Positions 11,172 to 24,135 of a stretch of DNA of 64,000 bases are shown in pieces. The stretch comes from Candidatus Omnitrophota bacterium (GTDB lineage Bacteria; Omnitrophota; Gorgyraeia; Duberdicusellales; 4484-171). The stretch lies in contig JAQUWY010000004.1 of NCBI GenBank assembly GCA_028692655.1, positions 933 to 64,932 on the forward strand, written 5' to 3'. How positions within the stretch are numbered: the first letter of the stretch is position 1; each line of letters begins with the position of its first letter. The translations under genes and the position numbers were made by a program. Under the pieces are notes generated by a model that had not been told where the DNA came from, did not search any database, and saw only the letters and a list, made by a program, of their open reading frames with translations.

Positions 11172-13798
<2,627 letters not shown>

Positions 13799-22568: not shown

Positions 22569-22620
22569 GGCGGGATGCCCAAGTGGTCTAAGGGGGATGT
22601 CTGCAATCCCGCCCTTTTTT
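22569..22620 (+). terminator. rho-independent terminator after rpoZ (tRNA-like minihelix plus T6)
   Basis: GGCGGGAT...ATCCCGCC forms an 8-bp stem followed by TTTTTT. The 29-nt loop resembles the D-arm and anticodon loop of tRNA-Cys. Confidence 0.5.
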
Positions 22621-22624
22621 AGTT

Positions 22625-22696
22625 GGCGCGGTAGCCAAGCGGCAAGGCGACGGTCTGCAAAACCGTTACACACCGGTTCAAATCCGGTCCGCGCCT
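22625..22696 (+). tRNA. tRNA-Cys (anticodon GCA)
   Basis: Acceptor GGCGCGG/CCGCGCC, anticodon arm ACGGT-CTGCAAA-ACCGT, T-arm ACCGG-TTCAAAT-CCGGT. Confidence 0.85.
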
Positions 22697-22914
22697 GTGT
22701 AAAGTCGATAGTCCATAGACTATAGTCGATAGAAAAATAGGGGATCTAAATTTGGAAAATTAACAGTTTGGCAAAAGGCAATGAAGCTTTTACAGGTTAA
22801 GGCAGAAGAAATTGTGGAAATAATTTCTGAACTACGCAACTCTCTTAGACAAAAATTGTTCTTTCATATATATGGACTATGGACTATTAACTATCGTCTA
22901 TTGACTTTATTATT

Positions 22915-23000: not shown

Positions 23001-23116
23001 GTCTAATTTTGCCTTTGGCAAAATTAGACAGAGCAATTGAGTAATAGACAATAGAACAATAGATGAAATAACTCAATTGCGGTCTATTTTCTATTGCTCT
23101 ATTGTTCTTTTTAGCT

Positions 23117-23200
23117 AGGCATCTCGGATATGTATCCTCGATGCCGATAAAAAATAAGGAATGACCCTGCATAGTTATCTTTTTTATCGGGCGATTAGCT
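23117..23200. repeat. tRNA-upstream element U (about 72 bp) fused to a duplicated 12-nt 5' end of tRNA-Val
   Basis: AGGCATCTCGG...GATGCCGATAAAAAATAAGGAATGACCCT... is about 70% identical to the 23845-23915 element just upstream of tRNA-Asp. It is followed by GGGCGATTAGCT, the first 12 nt of the tRNA-Val at 23388. Confidence 0.6.
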
Positions 23201-23387
23201 TCCCGCACAAACCCCATTTATACGGGACTTTCCGCCAAAAGCGGAATCCCGCTAAACAAATACATCGAGTAGCGGGAAATTCGACCAAACAACTTTTATG
23301 CACCTACGGTTTTAAAAGTTGTGGTCTCATTGAGCAGTTGGTAGTGGTTATTGTAAGCGCAAGGTTTTATAAAAGTGCTAAACTTTC

Positions 23388-23461
23388 GGGCGATTAGCTC
23401 AGTTGGCTAGAGTATCTCCTTGACATGGAGGGGGTCACAGGTTCAAGTCCTGTATCGCCCA
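23388..23461 (+). tRNA. tRNA-Val (anticodon GAC)
   Basis: 74 nt. Acceptor GGGCGAT/ATCGCCC, anticodon arm TCTCC-TTGACAT-GGAGG, T-arm ACAGG-TTCAAGT-CCTGT. Confidence 0.85.
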
Positions 23462-23769
23462 TGTTTTTTTGATGGCATGCCGGCGGTAACCGGCAGCAGG
23501 TTCCCCCGTACCAGAACTCGCTTTGCTCGTTCGGTCCGGGGTTAATTCGACCAAGCAATTTTTCTTCACTTCGTTTGAAAAAATGCGGTCTCATTGAAAA
23601 GTCCTGTATCGCCCATGTTTTTTTGATGGCATGCCGGCGGTAACCGGCAGCAGGTTCCCCCGTACCAGAACTCGTTTTGCTCGTTCGGTCCGGGGTTAAT
23701 TCGACCAAGCAATTTTTCTTCACTTCGTTTGAAAAAATGCGGTCTCATTGAAAAGTCCTGTATCGCCCA
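23447..23769. repeat. tandem array of two 154-bp units, each starting with the last 15 nt of tRNA-Val, plus a terminal third 15-nt copy
   Basis: GTCCTGTATCGCCCA occurs at 23447, 23601 and 23755. The intervening 139 bp are near-identical (one C/T difference) and carry the hairpin core shared with the tRNA-Glu repeats. Confidence 0.9.
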
Positions 23770-23915
23770 TGTTTTATAAATAAAGAAACAATCTTGGTTG
23801 ACATTTATAAATTATTTTATAAAATACATCAAGCAAAGAACATTAGGCATTACGGGTCAATACCCTCAATGCCGTGAAAAAACAAGGAATAACCCTTAAT
23901 GTTTTCATTCTTTCC

Positions 23916-23991: not shown

Positions 23992-24118
23992 TAGTTTTAT
24001 TTGCTCTATTAAGGTGGGCGGGACAACTCGAGGTTCAAAGTAATTACAGAGCCTAATACATTATTTGGCAATGGTTTTGTTCTTTGGCTAAGCTTCGGCT
24101 TTGCCGAAGATCATTGAC

Positions 24119-24135
24119 AAATCCCAGCGACCCCG
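24119..24135. repeat. 17-nt copy of the tRNA-Asp 3' end (AAATCCCAgCGACCCCG, 1 mismatch) 128 bp downstream of tRNA-Asp
   Basis: Direct repeat of the tRNA-Asp 3' end (the gene ends at 23991). This is the same arrangement seen at tRNA-Val and tRNA-Glu. Confidence 0.6.

Follow-up and report, generated by a model that had tools for sequence, protein, structure and literature searches.

The window analyzed here is a 64-kb stretch of a contig from a Candidatus Omnitrophota metagenome-assembled genome (MAG), in which the 3' end of a tRNA-Val gene is repeated in a tandem array of short structured units that recur behind other tRNA genes. The window includes the replication origin region (dnaA, dnaN, gyrB, and gyrA, with a GC skew that flips near 15 to 16 kb) and six tRNA genes on which ARAGORN and Rfam agree. 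The intact tRNA-Val(GAC) gene lies on the plus strand at positions 23388 to 23461 (ARAGORN; Rfam tRNA model, 64.7 bits), and the array begins inside it: Tandem Repeats Finder places a repeat with a period of 154 nucleotides (nt) at 23445 to 23775 (2.1 copies, 99% matches, score of 655), and a repeat search delimits the copies as 23445 to 23598 and 23599 to 23752 (99% identity), which differ at a single base (C at 23521, T at 23675). A preliminary description of this DNA had noted two near-identical 154-bp units behind tRNA-Val, which these results bear out, and had each unit start with the 3' end of the tRNA and a third copy close the array; that layout stands, but the repeat is 23 nt long and not 15 nt. 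This 23-nt repeat, AAGTCCTGTATCGCCCATGTTTT, starts at 23445, 23599, and 23753 and covers the 3' part of the tRNA, beginning with A57 in the T-loop, together with the next 6 nt. The two-unit copy number at tRNA-Val comes from one MAG contig, the other assemblies of the same organism that we obtained ending before the array.

We call these type-1 units. Each consists, in order, of a T-rich 35-nt leader, a short segment a', a hairpin P1, a hairpin module P2, and a segment B that resumes the tRNA at the A's of its T-loop. The first B copy is the end of the tRNA gene itself (its last 17 nt, 23445 to 23461, plus 6 nt of trailer; plus strand, as for all features of the array). The leader of unit 1 (23462 to 23496) is T-rich, starts like a tRNA trailer, and contains the predicted hairpin TGCCGG-CGGTAA-CCGGCA, while the a' segment CAGGTTC (23497 to 23503) corresponds to the 5' strand of the tRNA-Val T-stem plus TTC and pairs with CCTG of the next B copy. 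P1 (23504 to 23541) comprises a 9-bp stem, a bulged A, a GAAC/GTTC helix, a UC/UC internal loop, and a GC-UUU-GC tip, and P2 (23542 to 23597; TTAAT-TC-GACC ... GGTC-TC-ATTGA) ends in the conserved CTCATTGA beside a run of A's. The second B copy (AAGTCCTGTATCGCCCATGTTTT, 23599 to 23621) likewise begins with A57 and includes 6 nt beyond the tRNA end, and the unit 2 insert (23622 to 23752) repeats the anatomy of unit 1 with a shift of 154 nt (leader; a' at 23651 to 23657; P1 at 23658 to 23695; P2 at 23696 to 23751). The third B copy (23753 to 23775) ends the array and is followed by native flank and the promoter of tRNA-Asp (23798 to 23825); this flank is homologous to that found after a single unit in two of the related loci compared with the window, L004 and L019 (such loci are labeled L001 to L039). 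A core of about 100 nt therefore occupies the T-loop of a second, partial T-arm and is closed by the pairing of a' with B, with the junctions reading a' plus TTC, core, and AAAT plus the 3' strand of the T-stem. Segments a' that match their own B are also found at tRNA-Glu of the window (GCCGGTTC), in L009 (GCCAGTTC), in L039 (ACAGGTTC), and at tRNA-Arg of L024 (TGCAGG). We considered whether the leader is a decayed tRNA body and rejected this, as similarity to the tRNA ends right at the T-stem. In the predicted fold GGCGGTA of the unit 1 leader can pair with the acceptor 3' strand TATCGCC, but we dropped such leader/B acceptor-like pairing as a general feature since it is present in only about 4 of 12 units.

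An alignment of 17 distinct P1 copies has an invariant 21-nt apex and a stem in which 92% of cells are paired, with pair 10:37 occurring as CG, UA, AU, and UG. The P2 pattern matches three times in the window (0.03 expected); its base takes the forms GAC/GTC, GCAC/GTGC, AAT/GTT, and GTCAT/ATGAC over 11 distinct instances, all of which keep a long hairpin, and its distal helices vary in sequence between copies while complementarity is kept. The UC/UC loop of P2 sits 7 nt from the right end of the insert. The stems are nearly pure Watson-Crick helices with 0 to 2 G-U pairs, and folding is no worse for the reverse strand, so that these structures could act as DNA palindromes as easily as RNA; for the same reason G-U pairs are uninformative as to the strand of function. 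Templated correction of quasi-palindromes, i.e., template-switch mutagenesis at inverted repeats, can mimic covariation. The inserts (95 to 190 nt) contain no real open reading frames (ORFs). Their T-rich left ends are unrelated to their right ends (CATTRA / ATTGGATAC), and we found no terminal inverted repeats; left ends vary within a core family, right ends are conserved, and the A run after CATTRA ranges from 4 to 8 A among copies. The tRNAs have strong promoters, and no terminator separates tRNA and unit.

The core ACCAGAACTCG(C/T)TTTGCTCGTTCGG occurs four times in the window compared with 0.00 times expected from 100 shuffles, twice after tRNA-Val and twice after the minus-strand tRNA-Glu(UUC) gene (8539 to 8615; ARAGORN and Rfam), in the same orientation relative to the tRNA, as the preliminary description had also stated. 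Behind tRNA-Glu lies a complete type-1 unit on the minus strand (8350 to 8538), with a leader, a' (GCCGGTTC, 8495 to 8502), P1 (8457 to 8494), and P2 (8413 to 8456). Its B is itself interrupted, with AAATCCGGC at 8404 to 8412, a 43-nt hairpin insert at 8361 to 8403, and TGGGGTCGTA at 8350 to 8359. A second unit (8277 to 8349, minus strand) is truncated inside P1 by a deletion that joins it to the promoter region of the downstream gene. Hairpin inserts of about 35 to 47 nt (GGCGAGGTCTCGC / CCGCC...GGCGGAA) are also seen inside other tRNA-like fragments, namely, in unit 1 of L011 and at 6120 to 6170 of L039; the insert at 8361 to 8403 sits between the T-stem and the acceptor strand of the tRNA-Glu B, and those of L011 and L039 sit in the T-loop of pseudo T-arms.

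Two further modules flank the array. Upstream of tRNA-Val, a mirror-image 5' module (23187 to 23385, plus strand; detected by repeats and a P2 pattern match and 99.5% identical in L019) starts with a 14-nt copy of the tRNA 5' end (TCGGGCGATTAGCT, 23187 to 23200), continues with a variant first hairpin (23201 to 23277) and a P2 module ending in GGTCTCATTGA (23278 to 23333), and closes with the D-loop-like GCAGTTGGTAGTGG and a spacer; about 17 nt of D-arm-like sequence is kept in it. Downstream of tRNA-Asp, a repeat search identified a module (23993 to 24135, plus strand) whose leader contains the T-arm-like GAGGTTCAAAG and whose core belongs to a different family, which we call type 2 (24069 to 24117; predicted closing stem CAATG/CATTG and a UUCG hairpin), followed by an 18-nt copy of the tRNA-Asp 3' end with one mismatch (24118 to 24135). 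There are at least three core families in all. Type-2 cores fold into three-way junctions; their closing stems covary, and C(UUCG)G loops are frequent in them. GCGAAGC-type DNA mini-hairpins are also seen among the stems of the modules.

We located orthologous tRNA loci in related genomes through homologues of GyrA and Gmk (the gene downstream of tRNA-Glu had too few homologues), and at these sites units are present in some genomes and absent from others. At tRNA-Glu, L022 and L025 have an empty site, L002 and L009 have one type-1 unit each, the window has 1.5, L023 has a type-2 unit, and L024 has a different element. At tRNA-Val, the empty sites are those of L036 and L037; the window carries two type-1 units, L004/L019 one with a different P2 interior, L038 a unit of type 2, and L039 a small one of type 3. 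At tRNA-Asp the site filled in the window is empty in L004, where CCATG directly follows the tRNA, and type-2 or other modules were found at tRNA-Leu and tRNA-Arg sites in several genomes. Across all Omnitrophota loci sampled, 14 of 39 tRNAs have their last 15 nt (with at most 2 mismatches) repeated 78 to 172 nt downstream, two tRNA-Glu loci with an interrupted B raise this count to 16 of 39 (about 40%), and 4 of the 39 have a 5' repeat upstream. By our own calculation chance would yield about 4e-4 such repeats per tRNA; the observed frequency is far above this, which indicates that these are insertion polymorphisms of a kind common in this clade.

The insertions share a junction in the T-loop whose exact position is specific to the core family, after C56 in type 1 and after U55 in type 2. 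Direct repeats of the tRNA 3' end flank the inserts at tRNA-Val, -Glu, -Asp, -Leu, -Arg, -Pro, and -Thr, with the tRNA regenerated. The duplicated segments are 14, 17 to 24, or 62 nt long and are always bounded by landmarks of the RNA gene, and the block of identity runs 0 to 7 nt into the trailer and not into CCA. B is not always a copy of the adjacent gene: in L011 the a'/B pairs are GTGGG/CCCAC and GAAGG/CCCTC compared with GGTGG/CCACT in the neighboring tRNA, and in L039 B differs from the neighboring tRNA by 2 nt (tRNA-Val) and 1 nt (tRNA-Leu). In these two loci B is thus foreign to the tRNA yet matches its own a', which implies that B is, at least sometimes, borne by the module and not copied from the target.

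Shared units are also far more similar than the DNA around them. Between the window and MAG SO_2016_LW1_69, the tRNA-Glu unit (that of L002) is 98.4%, the upstream tRNA-Val module 99.5%, and the tRNA-Val leader plus P1 97.7% identical, against a baseline for the same pair of 80 to 84% in coding DNA (gmk-rpoZ, gyrA) and about 72 to 79% in intergenic flanks (72 to 87% for flanking DNA overall). The interior of P2 (23549 to 23588 compared with L019) is an exception within a unit that is otherwise 98 to 100% identical: at 56% identity it has been replaced by an unrelated yet self-complementary sequence. As far as sequence comparison goes, the high conservation of the units would fit either recent spread or exchange or strong selection.

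Copies of the type-1 core also lie outside these orthologous tRNA loci. Exact matches to the P1 apex were found at 5 genome loci, 14 metagenome loci, and 0 viral loci. The window has the exact apex at 2 loci and the related MAG at 2, and a further 122 kb from other relatives has none. At several of the matched loci the core follows tRNA-Glu, -Val, -Pro, or -Thr and the 3' end of the tRNA is repeated, and in L007 the core is inverted inside the split pseudo T-arm of a tRNA-Pro. In L020 (9231 to 9495), an intact 5S rRNA gene is followed by a 59-nt insert with an antisense P1 and by a 62-nt near-perfect duplicate of the 3' part of the gene; by gene content this contig looks like that of a small-genome bacterium which is not a close relative of the window organism. 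We note that the copies do not all lie 3' of tRNA genes, a point which the preliminary description had singled out for checking. Other copies are in 5' untranslated regions just before ribosome-binding sites (P1 or P2 modules; L001/L015 and L018), at the starts of divergent genes (L005, L008, and L014), and between genes (L003), and in L008 a palindrome is nested in the P2 loop. The sole viral copy found came from a search with the P2 pattern: on a tailed-phage contig (L021, 7225 to 7300), two genes of the tail region are separated by a GC hairpin and a P2 module (AATTCGACC...GGTCTCATTAAAA), with the following ribosome-binding site 10 nt further on. The first hairpin of this copy differs, and it has no tRNA part. 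The type-1 core is preceded by GGTTC in tRNA-linked copies and by TTGAA, TATTA, or ATTTA elsewhere.

Only one core copy has a mobile-element gene nearby. In L005 (1 to 1760, minus strand) there is an IS110-family transposase gene with an upstream non-coding region of about 250 nt (possibly a bridge-RNA region); this element sits in the center of a palindrome, AACCTTTTTTCGC ... GCGAAAAAAGGTT, which comes right after a type-1 core, about 60 nt from it, and the element's ends read ATCATTTAG..CTGTCAAGGA, in inverted orientation. We rejected the core as the bridge RNA of this element, since it lies outside the split palindrome that bounds the element and is instead a neighbor or target.

Searches for an enzyme that could move the units returned nothing in their vicinity. 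No integrase, for which the preliminary description had proposed to look, is encoded near the units, and scans of 30 window ORFs and Pfam tables for 8 related loci revealed no integrase, transposase, or reverse transcriptase; within the sampled loci the modules are non-autonomous. Likewise, no Y1/HUH transposase (TnpA or RAYT) was seen in the 64 kb of the window and about 120 kb of relatives, no TnpB, IscB, or Cas12 gene is present in the window or sampled loci, and there are no cas or tns genes in the window ORFs scanned, a lone Rfam match to a CRISPR repeat being far below threshold and elsewhere. With Rfam 15, only tRNA and rRNA reach the gathering score in the window and related loci, and nothing credible matches the region at an E value of ≤10. 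Annotated phages and plasmids gave no blastn match. In viral contigs the core apex has 0 matches, and the type-2 closing-stem pattern has a number of matches close to chance, none of them a real core. The literature that we searched, including one Omnitrophota mobile-element preprint, contains no description of such modules in Omnitrophota or elsewhere.

Several known kinds of element could be set aside. By eye, the units lack the defining motifs of small ribozymes (hammerhead or other), of group II domain V, of bulge-helix-bulge splice sites, and, inside P1, of a sigma-70 promoter, and with Rfam matches limited to tRNA and rRNA they match no known RNA family. Integron attC sites are a poor match: judged by eye, closing stems such as ATCCAAT/ATTGGAT are only loosely like the R''/R' boxes (RYYYAAC ... 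GTTRRRY) and vary (GTATGC/GCATAC and others), the junction is on the wrong side of the stem, and no integrase gene was seen. Miniature inverted-repeat transposable elements are likewise rejected, given the lack of terminal inverted repeats and duplications of 14 to 62 nt instead of a short fixed length, as is a CRISPR array or the guide of a CRISPR-associated transposon, given the lack of cas and tns genes in the window ORFs scanned and native flank that resumes right after B.

We tentatively favor, as possible and no more firmly than that, the view that the units are miniature non-autonomous modules that integrate at the T-loop and 3' end of tRNA genes. They would form a family of gene-free, palindrome-rich modules of about 95 to 190 nt that use the ends of stable-RNA genes as attachment points, each made of a leader and structured core followed by B, the stretch of the host tRNA from T-loop to 3' end. 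Entry may occur by recombination between the B-like segment of a module and the T-loop and 3' end of a tRNA gene, a Campbell-type single-crossover insertion that would follow the logic of tRNA-targeting integrative elements at roughly the size of an attachment site, with the helper activity presumably encoded elsewhere and acting in trans. With B at the end of each module, the tRNA gene stays intact and a displaced second 3' end is left about 130 nt downstream. The two-unit array at tRNA-Val and the 1.5 units at tRNA-Glu could reflect re-integration, or else unequal crossover or slippage between the 23-nt repeats. The anatomy, the presence or absence of units at orthologous sites, the sharing of one junction by several core families, the non-autonomy in the sampled loci, and the copy-number difference between relatives are observed; the recombination chemistry, the helper enzyme, and whether the intermediate is a circle, a single strand, or RNA are inferred. 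Support comes from the insertion polymorphism, the frequency of the modules, the family-specific T-loop junction, the B copies that are foreign to their tRNA, the near-identity of units in diverged flanks, and the lack of coding capacity and of a nearby recombinase, as well as from the recurrence of the same core at tRNA-Val, tRNA-Glu, and tRNA-Pro, at non-tRNA intergenic sites, and on a tailed-phage contig. The preliminary description had offered two interpretations, nested attL/attR scars of a tRNA-integrating element or a small mobile or repeat element that targets tRNA 3' ends. The former is not supported as written, classical scars being contiguous and flanking kilobases of genes; the latter fits better, with modules present or absent among relatives and the core found at tRNA-Glu and, elsewhere, at tRNA-Pro.

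Several observations weigh against this reading. Neither an integrase nor any other helper was found in the sampled loci, and no larger autonomous relative with these ends was seen. Searching viral contigs with B of tRNA-Glu, -Val, and -Leu returned only chance coding matches or contiguous att fragments of unrelated phages. A double-stranded circle of about 150 bp is physically awkward, and covarying hairpins and a T-stem closing a 100-nt insert are not what the arm and core sites of an integrase look like. The conservation of the units could equally reflect purifying selection on a functional transcript, and B is mostly identical to the tRNA, as a long target-site duplication would also make it. 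Finally, the 5' modules and the 62-nt 5S duplication of L020 require that this mechanism act at other loops too.

Selection on a transcript is central to one alternative, which we regard as unlikely: the unit would be a functional structured RNA made from the tRNA 3' trailer, in which the T-arm/acceptor mimic is a handle for tRNA-processing enzymes and presence or absence is the gain or loss of an accessory RNA gene kept by purifying selection. The units are as conserved as the tRNAs themselves (98.4% for the tRNA-Glu unit and 99.5% for the upstream tRNA-Val module, compared with 72 to 87% in the flanks), their helices covary (P1 pair 10:37, P2, and the type-2 closing stems) with many C(UUCG)G loops in the tRNA sense, and a'/B pairing is kept as the T-stem of the tRNA changes (CCGG/CCGG compared with CCAG/CTGG). 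Some leaders also hold an acceptor-5'-like 7-mer (GGCGGTA, CGGGAAG, or GGGCAAT) that would give a minihelix-like fold, and in L001/L015, L018, and the phage locus L021 a P1 or P2 module closely precedes a ribosome-binding site. An RNA gene of this kind is, however, hard to reconcile with empty sites in close relatives, unrelated cores in the same slot, the lack of an Rfam family, stems with almost no G-U pairs and equal stability of both strands, and tandem and truncated copies that look like junk dynamics; templated correction may also mimic the covariation. The palindromic character of the stems is instead accommodated by a scheme of two layers, whose chance of being correct we judge to be small, in which hairpin transposons moving as single strands, in the manner of IS200/IS605-derived palindrome-associated transposable elements (PATE) or of repetitive extragenic palindromes (REP) and their paired, hairpin-forming REPIN, have entered the loops of pseudo-tRNA fragments left by tandem duplication, gene replacement, or old integrations. 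Insertions in real tRNA genes would be lethal, and only those in the T- or D-loops of preexisting fragments would survive. Such a scheme is consistent with Watson-Crick palindromic stems bearing GCGAAGC-type mini-hairpins, with cores in both orientations in split pseudo T-arms (sense at tRNA-Val, -Glu, and -Pro; inverted in L007), with nested palindromes (the 43-nt insert in the tRNA-Glu B and the palindrome in the L008 P2 loop), with the IS110-family element centered in a palindrome beside a core, with the existence here of uninterrupted tRNA fragments and a pseudo-tRNA-Cys, and with a unit sense strand that is the lagging-strand template at both window loci, given the GC-skew switch near 15 to 16 kb. 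Against it, a prior pseudo T-arm is needed about 35 to 60 nt behind many different tRNAs, but a leader and intact pseudo T-arm without a core occurs at 0 of 39 tRNAs, save for one 32-nt fragment in L011; empty and filled tRNA-Asp, -Val, and -Glu sites differ by the whole module; no Y1/HUH transposase was seen; and the copy number of the P1 apex is low per genome.

The asymmetry of the ends can be read in still another way, and we consider it possible, though rather doubtful, that the modules are RNA-based homing elements, in which the tRNA-identical tail of a trailer transcript acts as guide or primer beside GGTTC and is copied back into DNA. In this RNA-mediated, target-primed "retro-homing" of a tRNA trailer, the unit would be cotranscribed with the tRNA and freed by 3' processing as an RNA that starts with the trailer; after a nick in the T-loop of a tRNA gene, B would pair with the bottom strand of that gene and prime reverse transcription of core and leader; and a second nick just past the tRNA end would create the duplication of B (plus 0 to 7 nt), with insertion beside an existing unit giving tandem arrays. 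Left ends that are variable and trailer-like right after the tRNA, fixed right ends, an A run of 4 to 8 A after CATTRA, and duplications of 14, 17 to 24, and 62 nt all point in this direction, as do an A/T-rich nick site (TTC/AAAT), an identity block reaching 0 to 7 nt into the trailer and not into CCA, a scaffold whose 17- to 24-nt 3' tail identical to the target resembles a guide or primer, and strong tRNA promoters without a terminator between tRNA and unit. The proposal is countered by the lack of a reverse transcriptase in the sampled loci or the 30 window ORFs, by stems that are nearly free of G-U pairs and fold equally on both strands, by a B that differs from the neighboring tRNA in L011 and L039, by the inverted core of L007, and by 5' modules that need another geometry; moreover, apart from that of group II introns, no target-primed reverse transcription of this type is known from bacteria. 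Debris of tRNA-gene turnover, in which a duplicated or replaced tRNA copy is disrupted, possibly by homing endonuclease cleavage, and then shrinks by deletion, seems to us quite improbable. It would account for the pseudo-tRNA-Cys beside a different intact tRNA-Cys (22569 to 22696 of the window; intact in L004), the GIY-YIG ORF between tRNA-Asp fragment and gene in L004, the LAGLIDADG ORF in the L037 cluster, a type-2 period that by our arithmetic approximates tRNA length plus core length plus 4 to 11 nt, and the roughly 17 nt of D-arm-like sequence kept upstream of tRNA-Val. Similarity to the tRNA nevertheless stops abruptly at the T-stem, with 7 to 8 matches and then noise, leaders cannot be aligned to tRNA bodies, and cores and leaders recur at different tRNAs and in different genomes as highly conserved units that are not decaying. 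That the tandem duplication is merely an assembly artefact, a collapsed or expanded repeat in the MAG contig, is very improbable. One contig alone covers the array, and independent Logan contigs end outside it, but the units differ at one base, the 1.5-unit structure at tRNA-Glu has a unique deletion junction, and single units have been assembled independently in NCBI and JGI records (L002/L013 and L004/L019).

The miniature modules that we favor share features with several known systems and differ from each of them. Elements that integrate into tRNA genes have been described as a general source of tRNA fragments, with examples of about 9 to 23 kb (PMC9897764), and the att duplications of tyrosine integrases, including the T-loop class, resemble the arrangement seen here in leaving an intact tRNA with its displaced 3' part at the far end of the insert, in a block of identity that runs from a loop to or past the 3' end, and in arrays formed by repeated integration. 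The inserts studied here differ from those examples in being 95 to 190 nt long and gene-free with no integrase nearby, in splitting the T-arm (types 1 and 3, with a core of 40 to 110 nt between its parts), in their palindromes with covarying stems, and in the 5' modules, the 5S case, and repeats without CCA. The classical att fragments that viral contigs share with these tRNA ends are unbroken: they begin in the anticodon loop or the T-arm and are part of prophages that are kilobases in size. Cis-mobilizable elements are non-autonomous, att-bounded, and thought to be mobilized in trans, and their tandem accretion gives three att copies; they are kilobases long and visibly deletion derivatives of integrative and conjugative elements. 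The modules are like them in non-autonomy between att-like repeats and in three-copy arrays, but no parent element of the modules was seen. With REP, the bacterial interspersed mosaic elements built from them, REPIN, and PATE, the modules have in common that they are short, intergenic, bulged, non-coding palindromes, found in both orientations, nested, and, to judge from L005, perhaps targeted by IS110-family elements, with subterminal imperfect hairpins (the bulged A and UC/UC loop of P1 and the UC/UC loop of P2). Those repeats are, however, present in high copy number, not tied to tRNAs, and without target duplication, whereas the modules have a low copy number, a P1 apex that is invariant across distant MAGs, and no Y1 or RAYT transposase in the window and the sampled relatives.

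Two further parallels concern the tRNA-identical tail. In TnpB omega-RNAs and Cas12 CRISPR RNAs a 3' guide of about 16 to 20 nt follows a scaffold, next to a short motif in the target, as in the modules 17 to 24 nt of target-identical sequence follow a structured scaffold. Just before this target the intact tRNA gene has the universal GGTT(C), in the position of a protospacer- or transposon-adjacent motif, and it is exactly between a motif and a flank of these kinds that an IS200/IS605-type element would be located. Unlike in those systems, no TnpB, IscB, or Cas12 gene occurs in the window or the sampled loci, the scaffold has no Rfam match, and an active guide would hit the cell's own tRNA gene. 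The resemblance to eukaryotic short and long interspersed nuclear elements and to R2-type elements lies, for type 1, in a fixed 3' end with a variable A run, a variable 5' end, a target duplication of variable length that starts with A's, and dependence on a host transcript; in types 2 and 3 the A tail is inseparable from the A's of the T-loop. Here no reverse transcriptase was found and the stems look like DNA palindromes, and retroposition of this type is not known in bacteria.

Other features around the tRNA genes of the window and its relatives deserve mention. Homologous pre-tRNA leaders (a hairpin AGGCAT...ATGCC, then GAWAAAAAAYAAGGAATRACCCT) precede the tRNA-Val region and tRNA-Asp at 23118 to 23186 and 23846 to 23914 of the window and also occur at 5950 to 6019 and 6330 to 6398 of L039; at tRNA-Val the leader abuts the displaced 5' fragment and not the intact gene. 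L004 contains, at 5150 to 5573, an ORF for a GIY-YIG nuclease (Pfam E value of 9e-13; also in L019, at about 13150 to 13573) that is absent from the window. On one side of this ORF are displaced D-loop and anticodon-stem pieces from the 5' half of tRNA-Asp, of which the first is preceded by GTCTCATTGA, and on the other is the intact tRNA-Asp, which contains the stop codon of the ORF; this layout of fragment, cargo, and intact tRNA is like that of the small modules, with a protein-coding cargo. In L037 a LAGLIDADG-type ORF (4997 to 5674; Pfam E value of 1.5e-8) sits between tRNA-Cys and tRNA-Leu, and the tRNA-Leu and tRNA-Val genes abut without a spacer. The pseudo-tRNA-Cys of the window (22569 to 22613) is internally deleted, its 5' half up to the anticodon loop being joined to the acceptor 3' strand and then a T run, and the intact tRNA-Cys 11 nt past it (22625 to 22696) is very dissimilar in sequence; L004, L036, and L038 have an intact gene of the deleted type, L037 and L039 have the other type, and the pair resembles a gene replacement followed by decay. 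A recurring element made of a terminator-like perfect palindrome (GTCTAATTTTGCC...GGCAAAATTAGAC, or TTTTTTCGCAAAGGCGAAAAAA), then CAATTGAG ... AATAGA repeats ... CTCAATTG, lies behind tRNA-Leu in the window (23001 to 23110), behind tRNA-Glu in L024 (12608 to 12700), and behind the tRNA-Leu module of L039 (about 5611 to 5715). Short tandem arrays of 7-nt units (including TCAGGTC, AGCTTAC, AATTATC, AGTCGAT, TATGGAC, and GTCATAA) flank several tRNAs, at 352 to 485, 22703 to 22732, and 22871 to 22906 of the window, about 20903 to 20925 of L022, and about 6190 to 6260 of L039. Some form inverted pairs, and the arms at 22703 to 22724 and 22871 to 22892 enclose about 150 nt that by eye resemble a fragment of a four-helix-bundle protein of the type encoded in 23S rRNA intervening sequences.

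Integration anchored at tRNA ends is already known, and there is a modest chance that the mechanism underlying these modules is new. If the favored reading is correct, these bacteria have mobile modules that encode nothing, are roughly as large as an attachment site, and are carried at the 3' ends of tRNA genes, in some cases at tRNA 5' ends and 5S rRNA. Elements that target tRNAs would then be known down to a size of about 130 nt, a class of tRNA fragments that annotation software will miscall would be explained, and at least three structured non-coding families absent from Rfam would be defined. RNA homing, if it were the true explanation, would amount to an undescribed bacterial retro-element or guide-RNA system, non-autonomous and anchored to tRNA. 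The split T-arm and the layout of a scaffold plus a tRNA tail raise the questions of whether a trans-acting recombinase, reverse transcriptase, or nuclease reads tRNA loops in these bacteria and whether the trailers become stable processed RNAs.

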